A stretch of 40,075 bases of DNA from Myxococcales bacterium (GTDB taxonomy: Bacteria > Myxococcota_A > UBA9042): positions 1 to 40,075 of the forward strand of contig JBBISH010000055.1 of assembly GCA_037441385.1 (NCBI GenBank). The letters are read 5' to 3'. A program made the translations under genes and the position numbers. Each line of letters begins with the position of its first letter. The stretch's first letter is position 1. This document shows, piece by piece, positions 3,416 through 35,097 of this stretch. Below the pieces are notes generated by a model. It made no database searches. It was not told the origin of the DNA and saw nothing but the letters and a program-made list of their open reading frames with translations.

Positions 3416-5290
3416 ATGAAAACCCAAGCTGTGACTCCCGATCTCTCGGCCAAGCTCGTCCAGGCGGTCGCCGCCCATCCCCTGCTCCGCAGCGTGGACG
3501 CGCGCACGATCACCGACATCATCAGTCAAAGCGTGCTCGCGCAGTACACCGAAAACGAAGCGGTTTGGCAGCAAGGCGAGCGCGCTGACAGCTGGGGGTT
3601 GCTGCTGCGCGGTCAGCTCGCCGTCCGCGTGCAGCCGCAGGGCCTGGACGAGCAGTTCGACGTCGACCGCCACAACCCGGTCGAGATGGTGGGCGACCTA
3701 GAGGTGCTGCTGGGCCTGCCGCGGCGCTTCAGTGTGGTCGCGATCGACCAGGTGCTGCTCCTCAAGGCGCCGCCGACCCAACTGCTCGAGTTGTTCCAAC
3801 GCGCGCCGGCGTTTGCGGTCGCCATCACCCAACAGTACGCGCAGAAATTCCTCAGCGAGTCCCGCAAGGTACCCCTGCCCTTCTACGACGTGTCGCAGGC
3901 CATGCCCCCGCCCGAGGTCGTGAACCTGCTGCCCGGGCAGTTCTTGGAGCGTCAGCGTGTGCTGCCCGTGGCCTCGCAGGGCAACCGCTTGGTGCTCGGC
4001 TTTGTCGACGACCTGACGGCTCACACCGTGATGGCGGCCCGGCAGTTTCTGCCTGGCTTCGAGCTGATCCCGGTCCGCATCGACGCCAAGGTCTACCAGG
4101 ACGTCTTGCAGTCCAACGCCGGCCGAGCGACCGACACCAAAGAGGACATGTCCCGGTCGAGCAGCAAGATCGAAGCCGTTTCCGCCAGTTCGCTGGGGCC
4201 CACCAAGGTCTTGTCGGCGCCCCGCCTGGACCCGCTGCTCAAACGGATGGTCGCCGAGGGCGCGTCCGACCTCCACATGTCGGGCAATCACCGTCCGCGC
4301 TGGCGCATCGACGGCGAAATGCGCGAAATCGCCGACGCCAAGGTCCTGGGCGAAGCGCAAGTGTGGGACATCATCGAGCCGGCCGTCCCCGACCGCAACA
4401 AGACCCAGTTCATCGAAGACAACGACACCGATTTTGCCTACAACCTCCCCGACGTCGCGCGCTTCCGCGTCAACCTCTTCCGCGATCACAACGGCATCTG
4501 CATGGTAATGCGCGTCATCCCGTCCAAGATTCTGACCCTGGAGCAGCTTGGGCTCCCAGAAGGTGTGCGTCGCATGTGCGACAATCCCAAAGGGCTGATC
4601 CTGGTCACGGGCCCAACGGGCTCGGGCAAGTCCACCACCCTGGCGGCGATGATCGACTACATCAACCGCAACCGCCGCAGCCACGTCATCACCCTGGAAG
4701 ATCCCATCGAGTTCGTCCACAAATCGAACCGGAGCCTGATCAACCAACGCGAAGTGGGCCCACACACCCAAAGCTTCGGCCGCGCGCTGCGGGCGGCGCT
4801 GCGCGAAGACCCCGACATCGTGCTCGTGGGCGAAATGCGCGACAAAGAGACCATCTCGCTCGCGCTCGAGACGGCCAACACCGGTCACTTGGTCTTTGGC
4901 ACCCTGCACACGTCGACCGCCATTTCGACCGTGGACCGCATCATCGACGTGTTCCCGCCCGACCAGCAGGCGCAAGTGCGCACAGTGGTTGCCGATGTCC
5001 TCAAGGGCGTGGTGTCGCAAACGCTGCTCAAGCGCAAGGGCGGCGGCCGCGTGGCGGCACTGGAAGTGCTCATCGGCTCGCACGCCGTGGGCAACCTGAT
5101 CCGCGAGTGCAAGAACCATCAAATCTTCAACATCATGCTCACGTCCAAGCAGTTGGGCAACCAGCTCTTGAACGACCAACTCGAGAGCTTGGTCCGCGAC
5201 GGCCGCTGCGACTACGACGAGGCGATGATGAAGGCCCTGGACAAGCCCGAGCTCGCGAAGCGCTTTGGCAAGGAGTACTACGAGAAATGA
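3416..5290 (+). CDS. pilT: PilT/PilU-family type IV pilus ATPase with N-terminal cNMP-binding-like and GspE/PilB N-terminal-like domains
   Basis: Motifs GASDLH, Walker A GPTGSGKSTT, ITLEDPIE, LREDPDIVLVGEMRD, His box TGHLVFGTLHT and an AIRNLIRE-like AVGNLIRE. N-terminal VWQQGERADSWGLLLRG...VGDLEVLLGLPRRFSVVA resembles a cNMP-binding domain. Confidence 0.9.
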   Translation: MKTQAVTPDLSAKLVQAVAAHPLLRSVDARTITDIISQSVLAQYTENEAVWQQGERADSWGLLLRGQLAVRVQPQGLDEQFDVDRHNPVEMVGDLEVLLGLPRRFSVVAIDQVLLLKAPPTQLLELFQRAPAFAVAITQQYAQKFLSESRKVPLPFYDVSQAMPPPEVVNLLPGQFLERQRVLPVASQGNRLVLGFVDDLTAHTVMAARQFLPGFELIPVRIDAKVYQDVLQSNAGRATDTKEDMSRSSSKIEAVSASSLGPTKVLSAPRLDPLLKRMVAEGASDLHMSGNHRPRWRIDGEMREIADAKVLGEAQVWDIIEPAVPDRNKTQFIEDNDTDFAYNLPDVARFRVNLFRDHNGICMVMRVIPSKILTLEQLGLPEGVRRMCDNPKGLILVTGPTGSGKSTTLAAMIDYINRNRRSHVITLEDPIEFVHKSNRSLINQREVGPHTQSFGRALRAALREDPDIVLVGEMRDKETISLALETANTGHLVFGTLHTSTAISTVDRIIDVFPPDQQAQVRTVVADVLKGVVSQTLLKRKGGGRVAALEVLIGSHAVGNLIRECKNHQIFNIMLTSKQLGNQLLNDQLESLVRDGRCDYDEAMMKALDKPELAKRFGKEYYEK

Positions 5291-6318
5291 CCTTTCGTTC
5301 TGCGAGTTTGATGCTGTGCGCGGTGCTGCTGACTCTGGTGGCGGCGGTGGCGCAGGCGGGCGAGGTCGACGCCTGGGTGCACCGCCAGGGCAACAAGGCG
5401 CTGCGCGACTTGGTGCAGGCCGAGCTGACCGCCGCCAAAAAGAAGAACCTGCAGGGCGTGATCCTGATGTTCACCGCGGACTGGTGTTCGCCCTGCAAGG
5501 CGATCAAGGAGTTTGTGCACGGCTCGGCAGTGGTGCGCAAGGCCCTGAGCAAAGGGCGTTTGCTGTACATCGACGTGGACGAGTGGCGCGGGCCGGCGCA
5601 AGTACTCATCCCCGGCAACGACGTGAGCAAACTGCCCACCATGATTCGAATGGGACCCAACTTCGAGGTGGTGCAGACCTGCTACGGCAGCGAGATGGGG
5701 CTCTTGCACGAAGATGCACTGGCCCACAGCTTTGCACGGCTGCTGGAAGGCAAGCCCATCGAGAAGCCGTTCTACGCGGACAAGCCCGAGCAAGAGCGCG
5801 AATTCATTCTGAAGCAAAGCGAAGCGCAGACGGCGAAGACCAAGGGCGTGCCGGCCCTGTCGGTCGAGGCCAAGGGCAAGCCCGCCGAGCGCAAAGTGAC
5901 CCTGACCATTCGCAACCACGACGGGCCGCGCCGCTGGTTCCTGGTGCCGGCGCGCCTGGATACGCCGCTGCAAGACAAGCCCACAGCCCGCGCGGTCTGG
6001 AAGCTGAAGTGGAGCGAACACGTGCGCGCCGACTACCTGCGCATCCAGGGAACCCCAGAGTTCTACGCCATTCCTGTGGCCGGGTACGGCTCGGTGGTGC
6101 TCAGCGACCTCGCGCTGGCGGGCACGGCCAAAGACGGCAAGCTCTGGGTCTGGGAATTGGACGCGCTGAAAATCGACGGCCAAGAGCAGCAGTTCCAGAT
6201 GAAGCTGCCCTACGAGCTGAAGATCCAGCACTTTGACCAGACGGCGATCGAGAGCCAGAGCGGACCCAGCAAGGTGGAACTGCGGGTCCGCAACCGCTAT
6301 TCGGTGCCCGTCAAGTAG
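5287..6318 (+). CDS. Exported thioredoxin-fold protein with C-terminal extension
   Basis: ATGA overlap with the pilT stop. Signal peptide ending AVAQA. Active-site-like motif FTADWCSPCK. Confidence 0.75.
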   Translation: MTFRSASLMLCAVLLTLVAAVAQAGEVDAWVHRQGNKALRDLVQAELTAAKKKNLQGVILMFTADWCSPCKAIKEFVHGSAVVRKALSKGRLLYIDVDEWRGPAQVLIPGNDVSKLPTMIRMGPNFEVVQTCYGSEMGLLHEDALAHSFARLLEGKPIEKPFYADKPEQEREFILKQSEAQTAKTKGVPALSVEAKGKPAERKVTLTIRNHDGPRRWFLVPARLDTPLQDKPTARAVWKLKWSEHVRADYLRIQGTPEFYAIPVAGYGSVVLSDLALAGTAKDGKLWVWELDALKIDGQEQQFQMKLPYELKIQHFDQTAIESQSGPSKVELRVRNRYSVPVK

Positions 6319-22311: not shown

Positions 22312-22648
22312 TTCTACCTGCGCGGGGAGAGTCGCGGCACCACGCCGCTGCGCACAGGGACAACCACGCGGCGCGCGCGCCTATTCCGCGCTGCTGGCGA
22401 CAGCCCATTTGAGAATTTCTGCGAAGGCCCTGGGCCAGACTTGCAGTGACCCGGCGCGATAGGTAGTCTTGGTGGTTCTCCGTGCGGGCCGGCCGAACGG
22501 CCTCCCATCGCCACGCACCACGTTCACGCACCAAGCGGAAATCTGTCGACCGTCAAAATTGATTGCGCACCCAGCGCGTTGCGAGCAGGCACCAGGGTCT
22601 GCGGCACCCGGACTCGTTTGGGCTGCGTTCAACCATTACCGAGGCGTC

Positions 22649-24082
22649 ATGTATCGTTTCCCACTTGTCCTTGCACTCTCTGCCGCGCTGGTTGCCAGTT
22701 GTGGCGCGCCCGCTGGCACTGGCGGCTCTTCCTCTGGCACCGGGGGTCTGGAGTCCGATGCCAACTCGGGCGGGCTCTCTGGCAGCGATGGAAGTGGCGG
22801 CGACGCCTCTGGAACGACCGGCAAGGACGGTTCGGTCGGCTCTAGCGCCGACACCGCGGGCACGGCCGGTTCGGACACGAGCAATGCGACCTTGGCGTGC
22901 GAAGAAATCAAGTGTGCAAGCGAGGTTGCCGCGTGCAAGGCCGACGCCAAGTGCGCTGCGGCGTTTGCCTGCCAATCCGCCTGCGCCACGCCGGCTTGCG
23001 CGCTGACCTGCCCGCAGGCCACCGGGCCCCTGGCCACGGCTCTGAACAACTGCGCTATTTCCAACAGCTGCGCCGGCAGCAAGCCCGTGTCCGTGTGCGG
23101 CAACGGCAATTGCGAAGCCGGCGAAACCGCGTCCAACTGTGCGGCGGACTGCGGTACCGCGCCGCAACCCGCAGCCTGTACGCCGTACACTGACGTGCAA
23201 GCGATCTTCAAGAACAACTGCAACGGTTGCCACGGCCACCAGTTCGGCACGTCGTGCGCGCAGGCCGGCAACTACCAGACCATCGCCCAGTGGGTCAGTG
23301 GCGGGGCCATGCCGCCAACTGGGCCGCTGAGCGCCGCCGACAAAGCGCTGGTGGCCGCCTGGGCCAAATCTGGCGGCAAGTGCACCGTGGCAGACTGCGA
23401 TTCGGCCCCTGCCAATCCGGTGTGCGGCAACGGCACCTGCGAAGCGGGCGAAACCGCCACCAATTGCGCTAAGGACTGCGCAACGGGGCCGTCGACGCCG
23501 GTCTGCGGCAACGGCAAGTGCGAAGCGGGCGAAACCGCCGCGAGCTGCGCCAAAGACTGCGCGACGGGCCCTGGGCCGGCCACGGGCAACGTCTGCGATA
23601 GCTTGTGCGGCCAGCAGGCCCCCAGCGGCTGCTACTGCGACGACCAGTGTGCGCAATACGGCGACTGCTGCTTGGCCGACGGCAGTATGCCCACCAAGAA
23701 GAACCCCAATACTGCTTGCACGGGCTCGACTTGCACGGCATGCAACGGCAGCGGCGGGGGCGGCACCACCACGCCCGTCTGCGGCAACGGCAAGTGCGAA
23801 ACCGGCGAGACGGCCAGCAACTGCGCCAGCGATTGCGCAGGCGGCACCAAGACTTGCACTACCTACGCCGATGTGCAGGCCATCTTCAAGAACAACTGCA
23901 ATGGTTGCCACGGGCACAAGTTCGGCAATAGCTGCTCGAGCGCGGCCAGCTATTCGATGATCAACAGCTATGTCCAGGCCGGCCAGATGCCGACCAACGG
24001 CACGCTGAGTAGCTCGGACAAGGCGAAGATCGCCGCCTGGGCTGCCGCCAAGAACGCCTGCACGACCGCGCAGTGCCCGTAA
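22649..24082 (+). CDS. Cys-rich modular lipoprotein with two c-type heme domains, four CGNGxCExGE repeats and a somatomedin-B-like module
   Basis: GAGG RBS, lipobox VAS-C and a G/S/T linker. CNGCH occurs twice, each followed by a downstream MP. VCGNGxCExGETxxxCxxDC occurs four times. SMB-like CYCDDQCAQYGDCC. Confidence 0.8.
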   Translation: MYRFPLVLALSAALVASCGAPAGTGGSSSGTGGLESDANSGGLSGSDGSGGDASGTTGKDGSVGSSADTAGTAGSDTSNATLACEEIKCASEVAACKADAKCAAAFACQSACATPACALTCPQATGPLATALNNCAISNSCAGSKPVSVCGNGNCEAGETASNCAADCGTAPQPAACTPYTDVQAIFKNNCNGCHGHQFGTSCAQAGNYQTIAQWVSGGAMPPTGPLSAADKALVAAWAKSGGKCTVADCDSAPANPVCGNGTCEAGETATNCAKDCATGPSTPVCGNGKCEAGETAASCAKDCATGPGPATGNVCDSLCGQQAPSGCYCDDQCAQYGDCCLADGSMPTKKNPNTACTGSTCTACNGSGGGGTTTPVCGNGKCETGETASNCASDCAGGTKTCTTYADVQAIFKNNCNGCHGHKFGNSCSSAASYSMINSYVQAGQMPTNGTLSSSDKAKIAAWAAAKNACTTAQCP

Positions 24083-24169
24083 TCGCCGCGCCGTGCCCGC
24101 AGCCGCTGGCGCAATGCCCCTAGCCGCCACGGCCGGGCAGGCCTGGTTTGACCCCACCGCTCCAACGGA

Positions 24170-24206
24170 CCACGAGATCTCGTGGCGTGCCCGCGAAATT
24201 TCGTGG
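24170..24206. promoter_or_regulatory. Pair of related 16-bp palindromes (operator pair or terminator hairpin)
   Basis: Perfect palindrome CCACGAGATCTCGTGG (24170-24185) and near-perfect CCGCGAAATTTCGTGG (24191-24206), 21 bp start to start. Confidence 0.5.
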
Positions 24207-24599
24207 TTTGCGGTCCACGCTCGAAGTTCGGGCAGCGACGGCGGCGGCACAGAGTTCACACTTCACTAAGTATATCGCAGACTTCGTCGATGCTCTAGCG
24301 TGTGCTGGCGTCTGTTGCGGCGTGTGGTCGGCGGCACGGACCCGGTCTGGCCCGTCCTGCGGTGGGCACGGAGCTGCGGCGACTGGACCGGACTGTTCGG
24401 ACGTTGATATCGTTTGAATAGGAGGCTCCGTCCTGGGCCGCGGCCGCGGCAATTGCGGCAAATACACGATATATTCGTCGGATGAAGTCAGCGCGGTCTG
24501 CAGCCAGTGTACCTGCCCGAATTGGGTGCTCCAACGCTAGACTGCACAGGCGAACCCGCGATGGAGCGGGCCGCACTGCGTGCACACTAGGAGCCAGAG

Positions 24600-27500
24600 A
24601 TGGCCTACACCCTGCCCAACCTTGCCCATGTCGGCCGCGCGACCGCCCTCGCGAGTGCTGTGCTTGCCGTAGCGGGCGGCGCGCTGCTCGCGGGCTGCGA
24701 GTCCGAAACCAGCGATCCATTCCGCGCGCAAGTCGTGCCGGTGCTCGAGCGGCGCTGTGCCAACGGCGCGTGCCACGGCGTGACGGACGCCCAGGCCAAG
24801 GTCAGCCAGCTCGACCCGGCCAAATGGTTGACCTTTCGCATCGATAGCGCCGGCAAGATCACCGACGTAGCAGCCGCAGAGAAATCGGCGAAATCCAAGG
24901 TCAATTCGCGTGAGAAAGTGGCGTTCTCGTCGCTCTTGCGCAAGACGCTGCCGGTGGCGCAGGGCGGTCAATACCACTACAAGAATCAAGTGTTCGACTC
25001 GGTGAACCACCCCGACTACAAAGTGCTAGCCAGCTGGGCGGGCAGCATCACAGACGGCACAGAGGGCAGCGAGCAAGCCCCACTGAGCGCGCGCGAGGAA
25101 CTTTTCCACGACAAAATCTACCCCGAACTGCTGCAAAAAGGTTGCGGAACGGCCACTTGCCACGGCAGCCTCACCTTTGGTGGCGCCGTGTTTGACCAGC
25201 CGGCGGTACCTGGGACGAATCGGCTCAGCCGCGCCGATCTGCGCAAGACAATGGAAGAAGTGCGGCGAAACGTCACGCTGTGGGGCGACCCGCTGCGCTC
25301 GCGCGTGATCGCCAAGATCCTGCCGCTGAACAAGGGCGGCGTGCCCCATAAGGGCGGCAACGACCTGTTCTTCGCGCACGAGGTCGAGGCAGGTAGCGAT
25401 CCGCGCGACGCGCCGCTCATCAAGAACTTGTTGGCCTGGATCGAAGCCACGCGCCAGGAAGAGGGTGCCGCAGCGCCCAGCCAGGACCCGCCCCTGATCG
25501 CCGTGGGCGGGCCGATTCCCGCCGCCGCGGTGTTCGCCGTGCAACCGTTTACTCCGGGGACGGACTTGTACCGGTTGGACGCGCCGTACACCGGCAAGCC
25601 GGTCAACTTGACGGCGGGCATCCACAGCAAACCCGCAGACATCCGTAGCCCGGCCGTGAGTCACGACGGCAAGACCCTGGTGTTCGCCATGCGCACGGCG
25701 GACGACGATGCCCACAACCTGTACACGCTGGGCCTGGACGGCAAGGGCCTGAAGCAACTGACCTTTGACAAGTCGGCCGGGCCGGCGGGCCGCGTCATTG
25801 GCAACTTCAACCCGATTTTTGGGCCCAGCGGCGGCTATGGTCCAGAGCCGGCCAAGACTGGCGAGCGCATCTACTGGTCTTCGCACCGCGGCGACCTGAG
25901 CGACGCATTTGACACGCAAAACGCCGACTTGTATGCCATGTCTCCCGATGGGAGCGCCCAAGAGCAGCTGACCTGGACGGTCATTCCCGAGGTGGCGCCC
26001 TGGTTCCTGTCGACGGGCGAGTTCTACGGCAACATGGCCTACACGATCCGCCGGGCAGCCGAGGGCGGGTTCAAGGGCGTCTTCTTCCGCTTCCCAGTGG
26101 ACCACAACCCCGAGCACCACATCCAACCCGAGGCCCACCCGCACTTTGGCATGAGCGAGCCGCAGCAACTGTTCTATCGGCTGCGCGAACTGCCCGACGG
26201 TCGGGCGGCGTGCACGCTGATGGATCAAGGAAACGTTTGGCGCGGTGGGCAGTTGGCCATCCTAGAGCGGCAGTTCGCCGTCGAGATTCCCGAAGGCCAA
26301 GAGACCAAGGCCACCCTGCCCGGCTTCCGCCACGCGTTGACGAACATCACCCCGGACGCCGCGCGCAGTGGGCAGAGCGCCGGTGGCCTGTGGCGCGACC
26401 CCACGCCGCTGACAGACAGCGCGATCGTCGTGGCCGTAGCCGCCACGCCCACCAACTTGAACGACCCGCTGACCCAGCCGCATACGGCGTTGATGCTCGT
26501 GACGCTGAAGTCGGATCCCACCAGCAACCGTCCCTCGATCGACAAGGCGACCGTGCTGCAAGACGATCCCGCGCTGGCGTGGTCCGAGCCCGTGGCGGCG
26601 CTGGTCCGGGCGCCCGAGGATCCGCCGCACCCCCGCAAGTGGACTGCGGATGGACCGACTGCGCTGCTGGTGCACTCGGGTGTGCAGGTGATCGAGGCGG
26701 TGCTGGCGCAGCTGCCCCCCATGGCGGCACGCATCTTGCGATCGGACCTTGCCTTTGTGCGGGCGGTGGTGCCGCTGAGCGTGGCGGGTGAGCTCAATCC
26801 ACAGCCAGTCCCGGCGGCAGAGACGCGCCATCAACTCAAGGGCGCGACGACCCTGTCGCTGACGGGCCGGATGCCGCTCTTTGCCGCCGTGGAGATCCCG
26901 CCGGCCAGCGATGGCAGCCTGGCGGCAAACATTCCGGCCAAGGTGCCGGTGCGCGTGGTGACGCTCGATCAGGATCACGTGGCGGTGGGCGCACTTCAAC
27001 ACCAATGGTACGCGGCGGCGCCGGGCGAGCGCTTCCCGGTGGGTATCGCGGCGACGTCGTTTGCGGCGCGCTGTGCCGGCTGCCACGGCGCCATGGATGG
27101 CAAACCCGCGTCGGTGCTGCAGCCGCCGATCGACTTCGTCACCCAGGCGTCGGTCACGGCCGCATTGTACCAGGGCCAGGATCGGCGCCGGCCGCTCGAA
27201 CCGCCTACCGTGACCAGTTCGATGTTCCAGTTCGTCGATTTCCGCAATCACGTCCAGCCGATTCTGGACTCCAAGTGCATCAGCTGCCACAGTGGCAAGG
27301 CGCCACAGGGCGGTCTGAGCCTGACCAGCCAGGCCACGGTGCACTACAACGACGCCTACGAAAGCTTGCTGAAACCTGGTCAGGGCTCGGCGGGCGGCTT
27401 TGAGTACGTGGACGCGTTGGGCTATCGCGGTCGCGACTCGTACCTGGCCGAAAAGGTGATGGGCAAGGAATATCAAGCCCCACGCGCACTGACGACCCCT

Positions 27501-27605
27501 TGCCCGCCGCCGGGGTCGCCGCAGTTGACCGCCGAAGAAAAGGCGACGCTGGTGCGGTGGATCGAACTGGGGTCGGCGTGGGTGGGCGTGCCGCCGGCCA
27601 AGTAG
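24600..27605 (+). CDS. HzsA-related (hydrazine synthase alpha-like) multiheme lipoprotein with TolB/PD40 beta-propeller
   Basis: AGGAG RBS and lipobox LAG-C. Heme motifs CANGACH, CGTATCH, CAGCH and CISCH. PD40-like SPAVSHDGKTLVFAMR. HZS-alpha middle-domain-like DGSLAANIPAKVPVRVVTLD...W...PGE. C-terminal DFRNHVQPILDSKCISCH. Confidence 0.75.
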   Translation: MAYTLPNLAHVGRATALASAVLAVAGGALLAGCESETSDPFRAQVVPVLERRCANGACHGVTDAQAKVSQLDPAKWLTFRIDSAGKITDVAAAEKSAKSKVNSREKVAFSSLLRKTLPVAQGGQYHYKNQVFDSVNHPDYKVLASWAGSITDGTEGSEQAPLSAREELFHDKIYPELLQKGCGTATCHGSLTFGGAVFDQPAVPGTNRLSRADLRKTMEEVRRNVTLWGDPLRSRVIAKILPLNKGGVPHKGGNDLFFAHEVEAGSDPRDAPLIKNLLAWIEATRQEEGAAAPSQDPPLIAVGGPIPAAAVFAVQPFTPGTDLYRLDAPYTGKPVNLTAGIHSKPADIRSPAVSHDGKTLVFAMRTADDDAHNLYTLGLDGKGLKQLTFDKSAGPAGRVIGNFNPIFGPSGGYGPEPAKTGERIYWSSHRGDLSDAFDTQNADLYAMSPDGSAQEQLTWTVIPEVAPWFLSTGEFYGNMAYTIRRAAEGGFKGVFFRFPVDHNPEHHIQPEAHPHFGMSEPQQLFYRLRELPDGRAACTLMDQGNVWRGGQLAILERQFAVEIPEGQETKATLPGFRHALTNITPDAARSGQSAGGLWRDPTPLTDSAIVVAVAATPTNLNDPLTQPHTALMLVTLKSDPTSNRPSIDKATVLQDDPALAWSEPVAALVRAPEDPPHPRKWTADGPTALLVHSGVQVIEAVLAQLPPMAARILRSDLAFVRAVVPLSVAGELNPQPVPAAETRHQLKGATTLSLTGRMPLFAAVEIPPASDGSLAANIPAKVPVRVVTLDQDHVAVGALQHQWYAAAPGERFPVGIAATSFAARCAGCHGAMDGKPASVLQPPIDFVTQASVTAALYQGQDRRRPLEPPTVTSSMFQFVDFRNHVQPILDSKCISCHSGKAPQGGLSLTSQATVHYNDAYESLLKPGQGSAGGFEYVDALGYRGRDSYLAEKVMGKEYQAPRALTTPCPPPGSPQLTAEEKATLVRWIELGSAWVGVPPAK

Positions 27606-27629
27606 GGCGGCAAAGCGGAGTTGCAGCGG

Positions 27630-28103
27630 ATGTGGGTCAAGCAACGACGGACATGGGCTGGCTTTTTGGCGCTCGGCGCGGCGACCGCGCAGCTCGCCGG
27701 CTGCGAGACCAGCCAGATGAACGCGACACAGCCGCTCGTCCCCAAGAAGGTAGTCGCCGACCGAACCACCTTTGCGGCCGAGGCGGCGCCACTGCTAGAG
27801 ACCCGCTGCGGCGACGCGATGTGCCACGGCCGCGGCGATCGCCCCTATGCGCTGTATGCGGCGGGCGCGCGGCGGATCCAGGCCGCCGACACGTTCATGA
27901 AGACGCCGCTTACGTCCGCCGAGGTAGATGCCAACTACTGGTCAACGCTTGGATTTGTCGACGCCAGCCAGCCGCGCGCCACCACGCTGGTGCTCAAGGC
28001 CGTAGGCAAGCTTGGCCACGGTGGCGGGCCCGTCTTTGCCGCACCCAGCGACCCCGAGTGTGAAGCGGTGACCAACTGGCTCAGCGGCGAGGTGCCCCGA
28101 TGA
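27630..28103 (+). CDS. Small lipoprotein, putative monoheme cytochrome c with CX4CH motif
   Basis: Lipobox LAG-C. PLLETRCGDAMCHG...LGHGGG...W. Similar to the two N-terminal domains of the upstream gene. Stop overlaps the next start. Confidence 0.7.
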   Translation: MWVKQRRTWAGFLALGAATAQLAGCETSQMNATQPLVPKKVVADRTTFAAEAAPLLETRCGDAMCHGRGDRPYALYAAGARRIQAADTFMKTPLTSAEVDANYWSTLGFVDASQPRATTLVLKAVGKLGHGGGPVFAAPSDPECEAVTNWLSGEVPR

Positions 28104-30607
28104 AGCGCGCGATCGCCTGGATGGTAGCCTTGGCGGTCAGCCTGCTGGCCTGCACCGACGAATTGCCGGCGGTGACGACGTTGCACGTCGATCCCAACCC
28201 GATGACCACCTTGGACAAGATGTGGTCGCCGCAGCCGCACCGCGACCGGCCGCGCGCCATCTGCACCACGGCCAATGCCACCAAGGCCTGGGTCATGCTG
28301 GCGGGCACGGACGACGACCCGGGCCAGAGCATCGCGGTGGTGGACCTGGCGGCGCGCAAGGTGCTGAAGAAGGTGGCGCTCGCGGGCACGCCCTATGGCT
28401 GCGCGCTGCACCCCAGTCAGAAGTTCCTTGTGGTTACGCAGCGCTATAGTGATCACGCGGTCGTACTCGACGCCTCGACCGACGCAGAGGTCGCGCGCAT
28501 CCCCGTGCCGTTCTACACCGAGGAAGTGCTGTTCAACGCCAACGGTTCGCGGTTGTGGCTGGCCAATCGCTGGAAGGACTCGGTGCTGTGGTGGGACGTG
28601 CGAGTCCAGGACGGCGAATTCGCTGTGACGGCCACCAACTACGGCGATCGGGCTGCCGACCAGAGCATGGGCATCCCGGTCAGCGACAACCCGGGCCGGC
28701 TGGCCCTTTCGGGCGACGGCAAGCGCCTCTTTGTCGGCTCCGTGGCAGGTTGCACGATCGCCGTGGTCGACGCGCAGACGGGCACGCTTGTCGACGTGGA
28801 CCAAGACCCGGCGACGACCACCGCCGGCGCGCCCCCGGGTATCAGCCACATCGACCTGCACTCGCCGGTGGGGGGCATGGTCACCCGCGGCAATTTCTTG
28901 TACGTGGCTGACATGGGCCGCGGCCTGGGCGCCCAGCCCGACCAGGGCATCGATATCGACGCCGACGGCAAGGCCGGCGACGCAACGGCCAATCAAGCTT
29001 TCCAGGATCAGCAGAACGAGATTGGGGTCGTGGACACCACCGCCCTGCACGAGGTGTTCCGCTACACGTCGGACACGATCGTGGCCCGCGACTTTCGCGA
29101 TGTCGATCCTGCGCACCCCGAAAAGGGGCCGATGCTGCCGCTGGCGGATCAGTGGTCGCCTTCGGTGGTCAACTTCATGCCACCCGCCACCACGTGGACC
29201 GTGGCCGGAGCGCTGCCCGAAGCGATGCTGGTCCAGGGCGACGACCTCTTCGTGGCCTTTGCGGGCTCCAACGAAGTCCAGCGTTTCGCGGTCGCGGCCG
29301 ACGGCAGCCTGAGCACGACCCAAGCCGCCGGCCAGCTTTGGCGCACGGGCTACAACCCCAAGGCGCTGGCCATCGGTCCAGGCGGCCAGGTCGTGACGGT
29401 CGACCGCTTGGGCGAAAGCCTGACCTTCATCGACCCCAAGCAAGCACCCGGCGCGGCCGAGAAACAACTGGTCATCGGCGACGTGGCCGGCGGGCCCTTC
29501 CCGGCGACCGATGCCGAGCTGGGCGAGGGCGTCAACGAGATGACCGCGGTGTTTACCATCGACGGCGACCAGACTTGCGTGCAGTGCCACCGCGACAACG
29601 GCGCCATGGCGCGGCCGTTTGTCATGCCGCTGCAATCCAGCCGAGCGTGGAGCTTGCGCAACGTGATGGCCCAGCGCGGTCTGTACGACACGCGGCCGTG
29701 GTTCTTCGAGTCGGCGATGAACGAGGACAACTTCTTCCCCGTGCTGAACGAGTTTGTCCGCCGCGAAAATTTCTGCTGCGAGCAGTTGGACATGCTGGTG
29801 TGGGGCAAGTACCCCAAGGTCGATGTGTGTCAGGCCGATCCGAACACGGCGGGCTGCAGCCACGTGCTGCACTGCGAAGAGGACCCGCCGCCTGAATGCG
29901 CCCAGCGCGCCTACGGCAGCAAGACCTTCCTCAAGCGTTCCGACTTCATGAAGGACGCCGCCAAGCACCTTTTTGGCCGCGACACCACCTTTGGCGACGC
30001 GGTGTACAAGGCGGACAGCAAGGGCCAGAAGAAAGCCCTGCCGCTGGACTTCGACGGGGTGACGCGCGTGTTGGGCCTGTTCATGATGCGCACGCCGCGG
30101 CTCTTGCCCAACCCCAACCGCTACCTGAACTTGCCGTCGGCCAAGCGCGGCGCCGCGCTCTACAAGGATCCCGGGGTCGGCTGCAACAACTGCCACCCGC
30201 TGCCCAACACCACCACAGCGACAGGTCCGGTGCCGTTTTCGCCGTTTGGCATGCCGGTGCACTTCCCGCCCGTGATCTCGCCCGAGCGCCGACCTGACGG
30301 CAGCGACGCCATGTTGGTCAACCCAACCTTTATCGCCACGTTCCCCCTGGTCGTGCAGGACGCGGCCGGATTGCACCTGGGTTCCACGCCCTTGCGGGGC
30401 ATCTGGGACCGGCCGCAGACGCGTTTCTACCACGACGGGCGGGCGCGCTCGCTGCGCGAGGCCCTGGCCACGCCGGGCCACACCGTGCTCTTGCCGGGCG
30501 AGACCGGCTACAACGAGCGCGGCGGCAGCTTTGACACCCACGGCGGCACCAGCCAGCTGTCCAAGTATCAGATGCAGGACCTGATCCACTACCTGCTGAC
30601 GCTCTGA
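28100..30607 (+). CDS. YncE-type beta-propeller fused to a di-heme cytochrome c peroxidase/MauG-like domain (HZS beta-gamma-like), lipoprotein
   Basis: Lipobox LLA-C. Propeller repeats SIAVVDL, PGRLALSGDGKRLFV and TGYNPKALAI. Heme motifs CVQCH and CNNCH. RGAALY and TPLRGIW...FYHDGRARSLRE as in the bCCP/MauG family. Confidence 0.8.
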   Translation: MKRAIAWMVALAVSLLACTDELPAVTTLHVDPNPMTTLDKMWSPQPHRDRPRAICTTANATKAWVMLAGTDDDPGQSIAVVDLAARKVLKKVALAGTPYGCALHPSQKFLVVTQRYSDHAVVLDASTDAEVARIPVPFYTEEVLFNANGSRLWLANRWKDSVLWWDVRVQDGEFAVTATNYGDRAADQSMGIPVSDNPGRLALSGDGKRLFVGSVAGCTIAVVDAQTGTLVDVDQDPATTTAGAPPGISHIDLHSPVGGMVTRGNFLYVADMGRGLGAQPDQGIDIDADGKAGDATANQAFQDQQNEIGVVDTTALHEVFRYTSDTIVARDFRDVDPAHPEKGPMLPLADQWSPSVVNFMPPATTWTVAGALPEAMLVQGDDLFVAFAGSNEVQRFAVAADGSLSTTQAAGQLWRTGYNPKALAIGPGGQVVTVDRLGESLTFIDPKQAPGAAEKQLVIGDVAGGPFPATDAELGEGVNEMTAVFTIDGDQTCVQCHRDNGAMARPFVMPLQSSRAWSLRNVMAQRGLYDTRPWFFESAMNEDNFFPVLNEFVRRENFCCEQLDMLVWGKYPKVDVCQADPNTAGCSHVLHCEEDPPPECAQRAYGSKTFLKRSDFMKDAAKHLFGRDTTFGDAVYKADSKGQKKALPLDFDGVTRVLGLFMMRTPRLLPNPNRYLNLPSAKRGAALYKDPGVGCNNCHPLPNTTTATGPVPFSPFGMPVHFPPVISPERRPDGSDAMLVNPTFIATFPLVVQDAAGLHLGSTPLRGIWDRPQTRFYHDGRARSLREALATPGHTVLLPGETGYNERGGSFDTHGGTSQLSKYQMQDLIHYLLTL

Positions 30608-30617
30608 GGCAACCTTG

Positions 30618-30845
30618 ATGCGACGCGCTAAGACGACAAAAGGCGCACTGGTGCTGCTGATTCTGGCGGCACCGTTGGGGGGCTGCGCCCCGGTGCCAGC
30701 CTGGTCGCGCGGCACCCTGGCCGACCGGCGCATGCAGCCAAGCCAAACGCCAGAACGCGATGGATTGCGCCACCACGTATTCAGTGTGCGCGAAGGAGCC
30801 GCCGGGGGCGACGGCGCGGCAGGTGGTGGCTGTGGCTGCGACTAG
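30618..30845 (+). CDS. DUF4266-like small lipoprotein
   Basis: Lipobox LGG-C. VPAWSRGTLADRRM...HVFSVREGAAGG...GGGCGCD, the characteristic C-terminal GGGCGC. Confidence 0.85.
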   Translation: MRRAKTTKGALVLLILAAPLGGCAPVPAWSRGTLADRRMQPSQTPERDGLRHHVFSVREGAAGGDGAAGGGCGCD

Positions 30846-31944
30846 TCCACTTCAACGGCGAATTCTGCTGGCCTTGCTGGCCGTTCTGGCCCATGTCCCG
30901 CTGGCGGACGCGGCGGAACGCGCCGGCTCGGCCGTGCTCCTGTACCGCGACAACGACCATGTCACCGTGTGGAAGCCCGTCGCCAGCGTGTCGACCGATC
31001 AAGGCGACCTGTCGGCCCAGGCGCGCTGGAGCACGGACTTCGTCAGCGCCGCATCGGTCGACCTGGTCACCGCCGCCTCGCCGCGCGGCTACACCGAACA
31101 ACGCCAAGAGTCCGAGCTGGGCACCGGCTGGGCCCTGGGCGAGGGCCGCCGCATCGACTTGAGTGGCACGGTGTCGCGCGAACCGGATTTCCGCAGCGAT
31201 GCTCTGGATCTCGCGACGGTCTGGGAGTGGCTGGACCGCCGCGTGGTGACGACCGCGGGCGTGGGCGTGGCGCAGGCCTCTACGGGGCGCACCGGCGATG
31301 CCACCGCTTGGCGGGACCGCGTCAGCCGCGACGGCCATGTGCAGGTGTCGCTGGTCGCATCGCCCACCTCGGTCGTCGACTTGGCGTGGACGCTGCAGGA
31401 CCTGCAGGGCTATCAGGCCAGCATGTACCGCTATGTGCGGCTCTATCGGCCCGGCGAGGCGCAGCACCTGACCGCCGTGGCCGAGCAAGTGCCCGACGAA
31501 CGTTGGCGGCACGCCGTGTTGCTGCGCCTGCGCCAACGCGTGAGCAAGGCCTGGTTCGCGCAGGGCGACTACCGGTTCTACAGCGACACCTGGGGGATGA
31601 TCGCGCACACGGTGTCGGCCCGGGCCATTTGGACGCTGCCGGGAGGAGCCTGGACCTTGCGCGGCGAGGGCCGGGGCCACAGCCAAAATGGCGCCAGCTT
31701 CTACAGCAGCCGCTACCAGACGCAAGCCGACATGCCGCAGTGGCGCACGGCCGACAAAGAACTGGGGCCGATGTGGACTGCCGCCGGCGGCCTGCACCTG
31801 GAGTGGACGACGCACCCCACCGCGAGCCAAACTGTGCGTGTGGGCGTGGGCGGCGACGTGCTGCACATGCGCCTGCTCGACCACCCGTACCTGCGCGAGC
31901 GCACAGCGCTGCTGGCGACCGTGGACTTGAGCTGGGAGAGATAG
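30832..31944 (+). CDS. DUF3570-like outer-membrane beta-barrel protein
   Basis: GTG start overlaps the DUF4266 gene's GGCGC codons. Motifs DFVSAAS.D.VTAAS, SREPDF, GYQASMYR, EQVPDERWR, YRFYSDTWG..AHT and TADKEL. Confidence 0.82.
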   Translation: MAATSPLQRRILLALLAVLAHVPLADAAERAGSAVLLYRDNDHVTVWKPVASVSTDQGDLSAQARWSTDFVSAASVDLVTAASPRGYTEQRQESELGTGWALGEGRRIDLSGTVSREPDFRSDALDLATVWEWLDRRVVTTAGVGVAQASTGRTGDATAWRDRVSRDGHVQVSLVASPTSVVDLAWTLQDLQGYQASMYRYVRLYRPGEAQHLTAVAEQVPDERWRHAVLLRLRQRVSKAWFAQGDYRFYSDTWGMIAHTVSARAIWTLPGGAWTLRGEGRGHSQNGASFYSSRYQTQADMPQWRTADKELGPMWTAAGGLHLEWTTHPTASQTVRVGVGGDVLHMRLLDHPYLRERTALLATVDLSWER

Positions 31945-32499
31945 ATGCCCCCAAACCTAGTTGGCGCGCGCCACCTTGCGACCATGGCGTTGGTTGCAGC
32001 CTGCAGCTCGCCCGTGTCGCCCGCCGACCCGATGGACGCCACCCAGAAGGTCGACTCGACGCTGCCGTTGTGCAGCGAGACCGCCCAGGTCTTCGCCATC
32101 GACAAGGGCGAGAAACGCGTGGTGCTGTCGGCCGGCGGCGATCTGGCCGTGACGCAAGGCTTTCAGGGCTTCTTGTTCGTCCGTGTGGGCTTGCACACCG
32201 CAGCCGCGTTGGCCAAGGCCGTGCCGATGAGCGTGGTCATTCAGCTGGACAATGGCGACGAAGAGTACCTGCCGCAGCGTATCGTCAAGACCCAGGCCTC
32301 GGCGAACGCCTTCGAAACCGTGGAAACACCGGTCTTCTTCAACGACGCCACCATCACCGAGCTCGTTTCGCGCAAGGCCGCCGTCGACATCGAAGTCGAG
32401 ATGCCGACTTGCGTGCTGCGCGCCCACGTCGACACCGTCCTCACCTACGGCGGCTACATGGACGCCGACGCCAGCTTCTGGGGCACGGTAGCCGACTGA
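31945..32499 (+). CDS. Hypothetical lipoprotein
   Basis: Starts directly after the previous stop. Lipobox-like VAA-C. GC3-biased codon usage. Contains a QGFQG..FV motif. Confidence 0.65.
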   Translation: MPPNLVGARHLATMALVAACSSPVSPADPMDATQKVDSTLPLCSETAQVFAIDKGEKRVVLSAGGDLAVTQGFQGFLFVRVGLHTAAALAKAVPMSVVIQLDNGDEEYLPQRIVKTQASANAFETVETPVFFNDATITELVSRKAAVDIEVEMPTCVLRAHVDTVLTYGGYMDADASFWGTVAD

Positions 32500-32733
32500 T
32501 CCTTGCGTATCAGACGGGTTCCGTAGGACTCGAACGCTGCAAAAACGAACCGGGCCGCCTGCGTGAGCAAGCGGCCCAGTCCAGCTCCGCAACTATACAT
32601 GCTGACGGAAATCGAACATCATCGTTGTTTCGTCGCCGCGCGTCGGCCGAATAGGACGCGCGCTTGGCGACCCACCCAGCACGCAGCCAAACCGATGACG
32701 TTAGACATCGGTCAGGCTGCATAGCTTACTCGC

Positions 32734-35097
32734 CTAGTAGACGCAGCAAGCGTAGCCGTACTGCGAGCTCGGCGGGTGGTCGTCGCCCGCGTTGCCCACG
32801 CCCGGCGCGGCATTGCCACCGTCGTTGTCCGAGTAGGACGCGGTCCAGTTGGCCGAAGCCGTCAGCTTGCCGGCAGCGCGCAGCACCGCGCTTTGCGAGA
32901 TCGAGCAGAGGCGCGAGTTCAGGTTGGCACAAGCGGCCGAAGCCGTCGGCCAGTCGACCAGCGTCGAATTCTCGATCTTGGTCGTGCACACGCCACTGAT
33001 CTCGGTCATGCCGGGGCCGTTGCACTCGAAGGTCTTGCGCTGGCTGGCGCAGCAGATGAAACCATAGTGCTGGCCCATGTTGGTGTCGTCCGAGACGGGA
33101 CCGACGCCCTTCTCGTAGCCGGTGTTGTCGTTGTCCGAGTGATCCGAGGCCCAGTAGCCCCAGCCCGCGTTGGGCAGCTTACCGTTGCTGCGCAATACCT
33201 GGTACTCGGCCTTGCTGCACAGGTCGGCCTTCAGGCCGGCGCAGTAGACGGCGGCCTGGCGGAAGTACACGCTGGGGTTGTCGTGCATGTAGACCACGCG
33301 CACGCCGTTGATGTACTGGTCGGTTGGGCTGGGCGGCGTGAAGTTGTAGCAGCACTGCGCGGTCCAGCCGTTGCCGTTGCTGTGGTCGTCGCCGGTGCCG
33401 TTGTTGACTTCGCTCCACTGGCCCGCGTCGTTGTCCGAGAACGAGTTGGTCCACAGGGCGTTCGAGACGAGCATGCGGGTGTAGTTCAGCACGAACGACT
33501 GGCTGTCCGAGCAAATGTCGGCCTTCTTGCTGGCGCAGTAGTTGGCCGAGTTCTGGAAGTTGCAGTTGCCGCAGCCGGTGGGCGCCGTGCAGATGCCCTG
33601 GATTTCGGGACCGGGGCAGACGTCGGTCTGCAGGCCAACCCAGCTGCCGTTCTGGCAGATCTGCGGGACCGAGCCGCTGTAGCGGACGGTGCCTTCCTTG
33701 GTGCTGTCGCAGGCCGCCGAGTCGTCGCCGAGCTTGACGCTGCTGTCGACAATCAGGTTGCCCTTGATCTGGATCTTCTTGTTCGACAGGGTCTGGATGT
33801 TCATCGACCACTTGAAGTCGCCGTCGAAGCCGCCCGAACCGCCGCCGCTCTTGAGGTCCTTGACCGTGATCGACCAAGCGCCCTTGATGTTCTTGTTCAC
33901 CCAGTCGCCAGTCATGTCGCCCGAGACCAGCGGCGTGTCGGTGTTGAAGTTGGTGGTCAGGGTGGTGCCGGTCTTGCCGCCGCTGTACAGCACGTAGGGG
34001 TTGGGGATGCCGGGGCCGTACAGTTCGACCTTGACGCCGCTCAGATCCGAGTTGTTGATGGTCATGTTGACCCACAACTTCTGGGCCTGGCCGATGTCTG
34101 GGAACGTCAACGTGTCGGTGACGCCGGCGCCCAGTCCGTCCGGAATCTTGATGGTGCCCGTGCCGGCGGTGGAGTCGACGAACTGGTTCCAGATCAGGCC
34201 GTTGCTGATCTCGTCGATCATGTCGGCGGCGATGGCCGAAGCGATGCACGCGTACGAGCCGTCGGCGTTGATGCCGTTCATCACCAGGCCCGTGCCGCAC
34301 TTCTTGCCCAGGTCGGGGATGACCGGCTTGTTGGCCAGGTCGGCGTAGCTGCCCGAGCCGGCCACGGTGGCCAGCGAGGCCGCCTTGACGTAGGCGCTGA
34401 GGTCCGTGGCCTTGGCGTAGACGCTGTGGTCCGGAATGTTGGCCAGATCGGCGTACGAGCCCGTGCCGGCGACCTTGGCCAACGACGCGGTCTTGGCGTA
34501 GGCCGACAGGTCGGTGGTCTTGGCGTAGCCGGTCAGGTCCGGGCCGCCGGTCAAGTCGGCAAAGGCGCCCGAGGTGGCGACCTTGGCCAGCGAGGCGGTC
34601 TTGGCATAGGCGCTCAGGTCAGCCGTTTTGGCATACGCTGCCAGGGCTTGCGGGTCCAGAGCGCTGGCGCCCACGCAGCCCGAGCACTCGATGCCTTCGG
34701 CCACAGCGGCGCGCAGCGCATACACGACCGAAGTCATGGCCACGCGCGGCAGCTCGGGGTCCGACTCGACCTTCATGCTGAGGTACGCAGACGGCAGGCC
34801 GGACAAAGCCGCGGCGGTCAAGGGCACTTTGCTACCCAGCGTGTACTGGAAGACGCCGCCCTTGACCGAGACCGAAACCGGCCCTTCGATCCATACCGGG
34901 TTGCCGCCCACGGCGTCTTTCAAGACGGCGAAGGTCATGTTGTAGAAACCATCGGCTGCCGGACCACCGCCCGCAGAGAGCAACGTGCCTTCGATGGCCG
35001 TATTGGTGGGAATCGCGGCCTGCGCCGACGCCGCCCACAGCGAAGCCGTTGCGGCGAGCGTGCTAAGTAACACTTTGGAACGTTTGCTGAACATCAT
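32734..35097 (-). CDS. Secreted fibre/adhesin-like protein A: conserved N-terminal domain, 36-aa repeats, P-domain and three Cys-rich lectin-like C-terminal repeats
   Basis: GGGAG RBS and signal peptide ending SAQA. LAKVATSGAFADL-type repeats. P-domain-like IPDGLGAGVTDTLTF...GAWSITVKD. Three C-x6/7-[LI]CS...W...SDND...CC units. Confidence 0.8.
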   Translation of the reverse strand: MMFSKRSKVLLSTLAATASLWAASAQAAIPTNTAIEGTLLSAGGGPAADGFYNMTFAVLKDAVGGNPVWIEGPVSVSVKGGVFQYTLGSKVPLTAAALSGLPSAYLSMKVESDPELPRVAMTSVVYALRAAVAEGIECSGCVGASALDPQALAAYAKTADLSAYAKTASLAKVATSGAFADLTGGPDLTGYAKTTDLSAYAKTASLAKVAGTGSYADLANIPDHSVYAKATDLSAYVKAASLATVAGSGSYADLANKPVIPDLGKKCGTGLVMNGINADGSYACIASAIAADMIDEISNGLIWNQFVDSTAGTGTIKIPDGLGAGVTDTLTFPDIGQAQKLWVNMTINNSDLSGVKVELYGPGIPNPYVLYSGGKTGTTLTTNFNTDTPLVSGDMTGDWVNKNIKGAWSITVKDLKSGGGSGGFDGDFKWSMNIQTLSNKKIQIKGNLIVDSSVKLGDDSAACDSTKEGTVRYSGSVPQICQNGSWVGLQTDVCPGPEIQGICTAPTGCGNCNFQNSANYCASKKADICSDSQSFVLNYTRMLVSNALWTNSFSDNDAGQWSEVNNGTGDDHSNGNGWTAQCCYNFTPPSPTDQYINGVRVVYMHDNPSVYFRQAAVYCAGLKADLCSKAEYQVLRSNGKLPNAGWGYWASDHSDNDNTGYEKGVGPVSDDTNMGQHYGFICCASQRKTFECNGPGMTEISGVCTTKIENSTLVDWPTASAACANLNSRLCSISQSAVLRAAGKLTASANWTASYSDNDGGNAAPGVGNAGDDHPPSSQYGYACCVY
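33744..35019. repeat. Long direct repeat, copy 1 (paralogous coding segment)
   Basis: Aligns to 36004-37279 at a constant offset of 2260 at every point checked. 33744-33837 differs from 36004-36097 at one base. Confidence 0.9.
34312..34635 (-). repeat. Three tandem 108-bp (36-aa) coding repeats
   Basis: YAKTxDLSAYxKxASLAxVAxxGxxADL...P occurs three times. An equivalent block lies at 36572-36895. Confidence 0.85.

Follow-up and report, generated by a model that had tools for sequence, protein, structure and literature searches.

Does a myxobacterium outside the anammox bacteria make hydrazine, or has it put the fold of hydrazine synthase (HZS) to another use? The question is raised by six genes, here named g1 to g6, at positions 24600-32499 of a 40,075-nucleotide (nt) stretch of DNA from a Myxococcales bacterium (contig JBBISH010000055.1). 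This whole stretch is referred to as the window, and its numbering is used throughout. An annotation made earlier from the sequence letters (the original prediction) had described a HZS-like multihaem operon joined to a DUF4266/DUF3570 outer-membrane module. We find that g1 is truly, though remotely, homologous to HZS alpha and g3 to a fused HZS beta-gamma, and that their union with the DUF3570 module appears to be new. We read the operon, at a probability of about 0.5, as encoding a two-part lipid-anchored extracytoplasmic redox machine, composed of a HZS-like part and a flavin electron-transfer part.

To our knowledge, HZS was long held to be without relatives. Homologues outside anammox bacteria were reported only in 2023-2025, as 'hzs-like' genes that suggested a wider HZS family (Dalcin Martins et al., PMC10732223) and as pairs of an alpha gene with a fused beta-gamma gene, which fall into clades I-IV (Hagglund et al. 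2025, PMC12758564). The DUF3570 module also has a published description (Meheust et al. 2021, PMC8238504). Both systems were thus already known, and the alpha/beta-gamma pair is less novel than originally implied, because such pairs were described in 2025. A full-text search that covered supplements in part returned no paper joining HZS homologues with the DUF3570 module or treating Myxococcota HZS homologues. The main text of PMC12758564 makes no mention of Myxococcota, DUF3570, DUF4266 or the outer membrane, and that of PMC8238504 none of hydrazine synthase, HZS or propeller proteins; a tree in the supplement of PMC12758564 includes at least one Polyangium spumosum protein.

Remote homologues of hydrazine synthase alpha and beta-gamma

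A search of the PDB with g1 as a single sequence gave HZS alpha (5c2v_A) as the best match at 2.8e-12, over the C-terminal domain only. A family profile of 54 sequences matched the same chain at 3e-39, spanning the propeller, middle and C-terminal domains. The AlphaFold2 (AF2) model of g1, with a predicted local distance difference test (pLDDT) score of 90.5, also returned 5c2v_A as the top Foldseek hit (E 7e-31, target-normalised template modelling (TM) score 0.65, 847 columns), with TolB as runner-up at 2.5e-13. This establishes g1 as a whole-length, if remote, homologue of HZS alpha, the assignment made in the original prediction. A TolB-like propeller (residues ~296-670), a middle domain (haem motif CAGCH at 825-829, followed by Asp833) and a C-terminal domain (CISCH at 893-897) follow each other in the same order as in alpha of the Kuenenia stuttgartiensis HZS alpha-beta-gamma complex (PDB 5C2V/5C2W). 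In contrast to the anammox subunit, g1 has ~260 extra N-terminal residues with two CX4CH haem motifs (C53-H59 and C182-H188), for which the invariant His126 and His250 are candidate distal ligands. Many g1 relatives are annotated with PF26549, which co-occurs with PD40-type propeller families. The g1 propeller also contains the motif EAHPH (E-x-H-x-H, residues 511-515), its E, H and H being kept in 51/54, 53/54 and 52/54 sequences; this degree of conservation suggests a metal or acid-base site.

The second large protein, g3, consists of a seven-bladed YVTN/YncE-type propeller (residues ~50-460) and a di-haem gamma-like domain with the motifs CVQCH (493-497) and CNNCH (695-699), an invariant His778 and a Cys559-Cys560 pair. 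Anammox HZS likewise pairs a beta propeller of seven blades with a gamma domain carrying two haems, and in Scalindua HZS (NCBIfam model hydrazine_BC) the two are fused as they are in g3. Single-sequence searches were weak, giving HZS beta at 6.5e-4 and HZS gamma at 3.5e-3 in the PDB, and hydrazine_beta at 2.5e-7, gamma at 1.3e-6 and the BC fusion at 1.5e-6 in NCBIfam, all far under the cut-offs. A family profile of 41 sequences reached 5c2v_B at 5.9e-26 and 5c2v_C at 9.7e-18, followed by MauG (7.5e-8) and di-haem peroxidases (1e-5 to 1e-6). For the AF2 model (pLDDT 91.9), Foldseek placed 5c2v_B at rank 2 with a target-normalised TM score of 0.71. The Foldseek list for the whole g3 model consists mostly of beta-propellers, and the gamma domain was judged instead by a domain-only family profile, which has a sole PDB match, HZS gamma (5c2v_C, 3.7e-14). 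We conclude that g3 is a true, remote homologue of fused HZS beta-gamma; the propeller and CCP/MauG-like assignments proposed earlier are weak for single sequences and become clear with family profiles and models.

The resemblance has its limits. Identity to anammox HZS in structural alignments is ~15-16%, the two gamma haem motifs are separated by ~200 residues in g3 as opposed to ~123 in HZS gamma, the HZS-like subunits are all lipoproteins, and alpha precedes beta-gamma, which reverses the anammox order. HZS gamma is also marked by Asp168 and by Cys165, which forms a third haem link. The Cys559-Cys560 pair, present in 28 of 41 relatives, lies 62-63 residues after His497 compared with 59 in HZS gamma, in a segment outside the HZS alignments. 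As a separate observation, the g3 propeller carries an insertion at residues 283-299 with a DxDxDG-type loop, DIDADGKAGDATAN, in which D285, G290, D294 and T296 are nearly invariant and which resembles a calcium-binding loop. HZS beta has a loop of its own that puts a conserved Glu into the tunnel.

The operon is closer in several respects to the published non-anammox pairs (PMC12758564). These also have the alpha gene upstream of the fused beta-gamma gene and have lost key HZS residues; clade I keeps the alpha-II haem, as does g1; a Trp occurs in a CCP/MauG-type segment, as does Trp534 of g3; and the published alpha TM-scores are 0.66-0.67, compared with 0.65 for g1. The published clades differ in having a FG-GAP/CRTAC1 gene beside the pair; in the operon, the gene between alpha and beta-gamma is g2, which encodes a CX4CH cytochrome and gave no match to FG-GAP. 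Clade I differs in haem number as well, its beta-gamma bearing eight additional motifs, compared with two in all for g3.

Hydrazine as an improbable product

Taken together, g1 and g3 show an alpha fold with propeller, middle haem and C-terminal haem, a seven-bladed beta and a di-haem gamma, and this architecture and haem count would be compatible with a genuine HZS, forming hydrazine from nitric oxide (NO) and ammonium in a hidden anammox-type pathway in Myxococcota. The NCBIfam equivalog scores argue strongly against it, at 47.4 bits for hydrazine_alpha (cut-off 800), 30.1 for beta (560), 27.6 for gamma (625) and 26.6 for the BC fusion (1250). The Pfam HZS_alpha model scores g1 at 19.7 bits against a cut-off of 26.6.

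The haem ligands point the same way. In HZS alpha, the ligand of haem alpha-I is Tyr591, at position +4 from the zinc-binding His587 (PMC12758564). The original prediction had given this spacing correctly, and had argued from the Asp found in its place (Asp833) that the operon catalyses a different reaction. Tyr occurs at this position in none of the 54 g1 relatives; the residue is Asp in 37, Ser in 13, Thr in 2 and Ala in 1 (53 of the 54 listed). The absence of the Tyr ligand supports a reaction other than that of HZS. In addition, the distal His772 of haem alpha-II pairs with Gly972 of g1 in the alignment, and HZS gamma His144 pairs with Phe536 of g3, two residues after Trp534. No hydrazine dehydrogenase or HAO-type gene, nor any other anammox gene, was present among the 28 window proteins scanned, and PMC12758564 reaches the same negative conclusion for other homologues. 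On the basis of low equivalog scores, lost ligands and missing partner genes, we reject a hidden anammox pathway, and we give a genuine HZS next to no likelihood. Our best guess is that the product of the enzyme is not hydrazine, and the data suggest a new extracytoplasmic redox enzyme instead. Of the complete HZS-architecture complex that had been proposed outside anammox, the homology and the non-anammox host stand, the relatives found all being Myxococcota metagenome assemblies; the assembly of g1 with g3 is taken up below as part of the proposed mechanism.

Operon organisation and export signals

The six genes, all on the plus strand, are closely packed, with spacings in order of 15 bp, a 4-bp overlap, 7 bp, an overlap and 0 bp (Table 1). 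Third-position GC is 0.71-0.89 in all six frames, as expected of coding sequence. A GC-rich hairpin between g6 and a convergent minus-strand gene, the sole terminator-like site in 24000-33000, probably marks the end of the operon; a sigma-70 promoter scan of the same region gave 0 sites.

Export signals were judged by eye from the translations. Lipoboxes are seen in g1 (LLAGC33), g2 (QLAGC28), g3 (LLAC18), g4 (LGGC24) and g6 (VAAC20), and g5 has a plain signal peptide ending in ADA before AE. The lipobox Cys is kept in 54/54 alpha relatives, 23/23 g2 relatives and 37/41 beta-gamma relatives. The coordinates and translations thus agree with the tight, co-oriented set of six exported gene products, five with lipoboxes, that had been read from the sequence. 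The seven haem-c motifs also counted there are reached when three CX4CH motifs are included, and only four are of the CXXCH type. Four motifs lie in g1, one in g2 and two in g3. In g1, CANGACH, CGTATCH and CAGCH are kept in 54/54 sequences and CISCH in 53/54; CGDAMCH of g2 is kept in 23/23, and both CVQCH and CNNCH of g3 in 41/41. Judged from these alignments, the conservation of the seven motifs far exceeds chance.

Table 1. Positions of the operon genes, their motifs and neighbouring features in window numbering (aa, amino acids).
Feature	Position	Strand	Basis or remark
g1, HZS-alpha-like lipoprotein (P0001), 1001 aa	24600..27605	+	translation, profile, AF2/Foldseek
g1 CX4CH, C53-H59	24756..24776		
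g1 CX4CH, C182-H188	25143..25163		
g1 EAHPH, 511-515	~26130..26144		
g1 CAGCH, 825-829	27072..27086		
g1 CISCH, 893-897	27276..27290		
g2, small mono-haem lipoprotein cytochrome (P0002), 160 aa	27621..28103	+	translation, conserved residues
g2 CX4CH, C63-H69	27807..27827		
g3, fused HZS-beta-gamma-like lipoprotein (P0003), 835 aa	28100..30607	+	NCBIfam, profile, AF2/Foldseek
g3 propeller insertion, 283-299	~28946..28996		
g3 CVQCH, 493-497	29576..29590		
g3 CNNCH, 695-699	30182..30196		
g4, DUF4266 lipoprotein (P0004), 76 aa	30615..30845	+	Pfam PF14086
g4 Cys73-Gly-Cys75	30831..30839		
g5, DUF3570 protein (P0005)	30760..31944, probable start GTG 30823-30832	+	Pfam PF12094
g5 candidate FMN site D93-FV-SAAS99	31036..31056		
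g5 candidate FMN site D101-LV-TAAS107	31060..31080		
g6, lipoprotein, no known family (P0006), 184 aa	31945..32499	+	Cys20 lipobox
GC-rich hairpin, 17 pairs	32546..32583	.	terminator-like site, scored on minus strand
T2SS/T4P-type ATPase	3416..5290	+	
Thioredoxin-fold open reading frame	~5300..6318	+	
Cys-rich lipoprotein cytochrome	22469..24082	+	probable start Met61
Large secreted protein, 787 aa	32734..35097	-	
Large secreted protein, 689 aa	35330..37399	-	

The DUF4266/DUF3570 flavin module

Both family assignments of the original prediction beat the Pfam cut-offs, g4 matching DUF4266 (PF14086) at E 1.6e-18 and g5 matching DUF3570 (PF12094) at E 1.6e-26. According to the paper describing the module, DUF3570 is flavinylated by ApbE, which attaches flavin mononucleotide (FMN) covalently at two [S/T]GA[S/T] motifs, and its genes cluster with those for ApbE, for a thioredoxin-like protein and for the small protein DUF4266, which ends in CXC; the function of the module is called uncertain there (PMC8238504). 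The operon shares with these systems the adjacency of the two genes and the CXC end of DUF4266. In g4 this is Cys73-Gly-Cys75, and CGC stands near the very end of 23 of 23 DUF4266 relatives from related loci. Also shared are two Ser/Thr motifs at the aligned DUF3570 sites, which provide two candidate FMN sites in g5 (Table 1); aligned with 40 relatives, g5 keeps the pattern D-x-x-[ST]-A-A-S at both sites.

The ApbE and thioredoxin-like genes of the published clusters are found only in relatives of the operon, not in the operon itself. In three loci of the window's own clade (L003, L010 and L017) a Redoxin+ApbE fusion gene lies between beta-gamma and DUF4266, and in L012 the same spot is taken by ApbE alone; the Pfam E-values of these ApbE genes are 1e-72 to 1e-78. 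By tblastn over 57 related loci, ApbE is present in 21 and a thioredoxin-like gene in 19. The claim of an outer-membrane module therefore holds as to the presence of DUF4266 and DUF3570, but describes them too narrowly: the pair is more than a barrel, comprising an ApbE flavin substrate and its CXC partner. With this flavin role, 'coupled to a beta-barrel' becomes 'wired to a flavin/thiol electron-transfer module'. We infer the beta-barrel fold and the outer-membrane location of DUF3570. Atlas neighbours of g5 are DUF3570 clusters, one of which has Porin_4 on 34% of its members, and a PDB search with DUF3570 gave nothing significant, a match to the FpvA barrel standing at E 0.71.

The last gene, g6, has no Pfam or NCBIfam match, and in the Atlas it has none but hypothetical proteins as neighbours, most of them from Myxococcota.

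Predicted docking of g2 onto DUF3570

For the small cytochrome g2 (CX4CH at C63-H69), a single-sequence scan gave no Pfam or NCBIfam family and a PDB search no significant relative. Eight residues (C28, C63, C68, H69, R74, R85, E101 and H133) are invariant in 23/23 g2 sequences. Comparison by hhalign with residues 22-151 of g1 (probability 99.4%, E 8.7e-22) identifies g2, on sequence grounds, as paralogous to the first of the two CX4CH haem domains at the N terminus of g1.

A complex of g2 (residues 29-160) with DUF3570 (residues 53-394) was predicted using custom alignments and 3 controls. The median ipSAE was 0.68 (0.65, 0.69 and 0.68 in the individual runs), compared with 0.00 for the best of the controls. 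At that mark a calibration includes 116 of 157 solved complexes and 2 of 215 mismatched pairs, counts that hold only roughly here because custom alignments were used. Contact agreement between runs was at least 81% and partner pLDDT at least 83. On g2, the predicted interface involves residues 72-77 and 130-132, beside the haem ligands His69 and His133; on DUF3570, it involves conserved loops with the invariant Y223, R224 and V226. As neither protein has a relative in the PDB, the score is not the memory of a solved complex. The prediction supports docking of g2 onto DUF3570, and we propose that g2 links the HZS-like and flavin parts of the operon.

A conserved gene set in Myxococcota

A scan of species-representative genomes with a single peptide pattern yielded the 57 related loci, which represent a lower bound. 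All are metagenome-assembled and labelled Myxococcales, Myxococcota, Polyangia or 'Deltaproteobacteria'-type, and several genomes hold two or three paralogous loci. A profile search with the alpha alignment returned only the same Myxococcota family and propeller proteins, and did not reach HzsA or the published clades. Gene presence was counted in the 39 loci whose sequence extends 6 kb or more beyond alpha on the downstream side. In this set g2 is present in 35, DUF3570 in 33, beta-gamma in 30, DUF4266 in 19 (tblastn is weak for so short a protein) and g6 in 13, always within the cluster. Alpha, beta-gamma and DUF3570 occur together in 29.

It could be argued that the haem proteins and the DUF4266/DUF3570 pair are mere neighbours and form no functional unit: the window operon has neither ApbE nor a thioredoxin-like gene, and the coupling stands on gene context and one structure prediction. 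This is difficult to reconcile with the recurrence of alpha, beta-gamma and DUF3570 in at least three gene orders and with unrelated flanks. The downstream order is permuted across subfamilies (g2>g3>g4>g5>g6, g2>g4>g5>g3 and g3>g2>g5), so that of the neighbourhood conservation proposed as a check, the gene set is kept and the order is rearranged. DUF3570 accompanies g2 in 33 of 35 loci and is found in 0 of the 4 loci without g2. Identities to the window proteins also co-vary across loci (Spearman rho 0.70-0.92, to which genome kinship contributes), and the g2-DUF3570 prediction scores far above its best control. We consider mere adjacency highly improbable.

A paralogous subfamily combines an alpha-like gene with imelysin (Peptidase_M75) in L030, L034, L037, L040, L042, L043, L044, L047, L050 and L056. 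Except in L050, a DHOR di-haem oxidoreductase replaces beta-gamma in this subfamily, and L043 and L044 also keep g2, DUF3570 and ApbE. Second clusters were seen in two further loci. In L021 (2292-9288, minus strand) a divergent cluster comprises an alpha-like gene (HZS_alpha Pfam 1.5e-8), ApbE, a beta-gamma-like gene and a RnfC-like Nuo51/4Fe-4S gene, and in L010 (27-1310, minus strand) a more divergent cluster lies close by.

Other genes of the window

The gene 518 bp upstream of g1 encodes a Cys-rich lipoprotein with two FKNNCNGCHGH haem-c motifs and ~five VCGNGxCExGETAxxCAxDC repeats, and Pfam identifies only Cytochrome_CBB3. It was considered as a member of the module and rejected, tblastn finding it in 0/57 loci. 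Downstream, the two large secreted proteins (Table 1) have no Pfam or NCBIfam family and an unusually low first-position GC of 0.52-0.53; the 787-aa protein contains DLSAYAKTASLAKVA-type repeats and has a Cys-rich C-terminal half. Far from the operon are an ATPase of the type II secretion system/type IV pilus (T2SS/T4P) type with an N-terminal cyclic-nucleotide-binding domain and, following it, a thioredoxin-fold open reading frame. Both seem unrelated to the operon, and the latter, 19 kb off and not conserved, was likewise rejected as a module member.

Discussion

In the machine that we propose, one part would consist of the alpha-like g1 and the fused beta-gamma-like g3, and the other of g5, the DUF3570 protein with two candidate covalent-FMN sites, and the CXC lipoprotein g4. 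Thiol reducing equivalents would enter the envelope via a thioredoxin-like protein and the DUF4266 CXC, and electrons would then pass to FMN on DUF3570 and on to the haem of the DUF3570-docked g2. From there they may reach the low-spin CX4CH and C-terminal haems of g1 and, finally, the CAGCH haem, which is alpha-I-like, and the CVQCH haem, which is gamma-I-like, both taken to be open. By analogy with HZS, these two sites would be joined by an internal tunnel and could carry out a two-step reduction of a small diffusible oxidant. We infer that g1 and g3 form a complex, that electrons flow in this direction and that a tunnel exists, as well as the membrane location and the substrate. Published accounts of HZS assign no role to the alpha-II haem and require no electrons at the alpha-I site; the operon family has three further haems, of the CX4CH type, which suggests that its alpha protein receives electrons or passes them on.

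Our best guess for the substrate is an N-oxide, for example NO reduced via hydroxylamine. This guess is based on fold ancestry, on the binding of NO by haem gamma-I of HZS (PMC12607021) and on scattered neighbours of the relatives, which hint at N-oxide or anaerobic chemistry. Within ~6 kb, L013, L016, L054 and L057 have open reading frames of ~1150-1180 aa for type II dimethyl sulfoxide (DMSO)-reductase alpha subunits (Nar/Nxr/Ebd-like), scoring 262-310 bits against a cut-off of 985, and L012 has a NapA-like gene (1562-3964, minus strand; 895.6 bits against 904) with NrfD and 4Fe-4S partners. The flanks also contain NnrS in L017, Crp/Fnr-type regulators in 7 loci and hemerythrin in 3 loci.

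Several observations weigh against the machine as drawn. The g5 motifs read SAAS and TAAS, with Ala for the Gly of the published [S/T]GA[S/T]; the same variant occurs in ApbE-linked relatives (for example L001, L003 and L012), and a more distant clade has SGAT. Neither ApbE nor redoxin was found in the 40-kb window by tblastn with six queries (best E 0.05, chance level), and flavinylation would thus depend on a gene elsewhere in the genome. No DsbD was found in the operon or among the flank open reading frames scanned (29 + 129 + 111), a set without the over-long L020:3093-8411 and L015:406-681. The predicted contacts of g2 on DUF3570 exclude the FMN-site residues Ser99 and Ser107. Nine loci have no beta-gamma. 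Six of these carry imelysin and DHOR di-haem genes by alpha, a setting associated with iron, and one more has a beta-gamma-like gene on the other strand, so that alpha is hardly ever without a di-haem partner. The neighbours that hint at N-oxides belong to a minority of the related loci, and the window itself provides none. Lastly, Trp534 of g3, conserved in 30 of 41 relatives, stands where the bacterial cytochrome c peroxidases (CCP) and MauG have their inter-haem Trp.

This Trp leads to the main alternative substrate, peroxide. The gamma-like domain could work like a bacterial CCP or MauG, either with thiol and flavin electrons reducing H2O2 in the envelope or with H2O2 oxidising a protein or small molecule held by the propellers. 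MauG and the bacterial di-haem CCPs share the two-CXXCH di-haem domain of g3 and are within reach of its family profile, and the segment with Trp534 is that in which the other HZS homologues have a CCP/MauG-type Trp. The ApbE partner of the relatives bears AhpC-TSA/Redoxin-type domains, and CCP_MauG or DHOR genes adjoin L002, L003, L030, L034 and other loci. Nevertheless, Pfam CCP_MauG (PF03150) gives no match to g3 at E <= 0.1, and the gamma-domain-only profile recognises HZS gamma alone in the PDB. In contrast to MauG and the peroxidases, g3 is closer to HZS gamma, is fused to a propeller and is paired with an alpha-like protein; a simple peroxidase would need no four-haem alpha-like protein that is strictly co-inherited with it (30 of 39 loci). 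A peroxide enzyme is possible but, in our judgement, unlikely.

The paralogous clusters and the flavin module bring a metal redox system into consideration, in which the lipoprotein cytochromes and a flavinylated DUF3570 would form a conduit for iron or another metal, for uptake or extracellular electron transfer, and the HZS-like propeller proteins would be terminal metal oxidoreductases. Flavinylation clusters are tied to iron handling, the VIT1 iron transporter occurring in 25 DUF3570 clusters (PMC8238504). Alpha paralogues without beta-gamma lie beside imelysin and DHOR in L030, L034, L042, L043, L047 and L056, a pairing that also occurs in L037, L040 and L044, and there is a MtrC-like multihaem neighbour in L010 and cytochrome c7/c3-type neighbours in L017, L028 and L051. 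On the other hand, no imelysin, TonB receptor or iron transporter was seen near the operon in the window or in its close clade, and the closest relatives of known structure have small nitrogen compounds or peroxide, and not metals, as substrates. The operon also has just seven haems, without the long haem wires typical of metal reductases. A role in metal redox chemistry thus seems distinctly unlikely.

We therefore retain the two-part redox machine, for which the porin-cytochrome conduits of the MtrCAB type offer a possible working likeness only, as a barrel-type protein contacting lipoprotein cytochromes. No sequence relation between MtrCAB and the operon was found, and the proposed DUF3570 barrel would carry a flavin where MtrCAB has a decahaem insert. 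In its boldest form, which we offer as a long shot, the proposal would place DUF3570 in the outer membrane as a flavin-bearing barrel. Together with the CX4CH cytochrome docked on it, this barrel would make up a new kind of thiol-to-FMN-to-haem conduit, powering a HZS-type two-site tunnel enzyme for N-oxide chemistry so far undescribed outside anammox, such as NO reduced via channelled hydroxylamine. If true, the HZS fold would be one specialised offshoot within a broader group of N-oxide enzymes that are coupled by tunnels.

The operon family gives the recently reported non-anammox HZS homologues a defined set of partners. This set, made up of a small cytochrome, a covalent-flavin protein, a CXC lipoprotein and, in relatives, a flavin transferase, amounts to a concrete proposal for their electron source, and the DUF3570 module in turn gains a candidate terminal enzyme. 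If confirmed, the association would link two orphan systems and help to account for the origin of the anammox enzyme from ordinary haem proteins of the periplasm.

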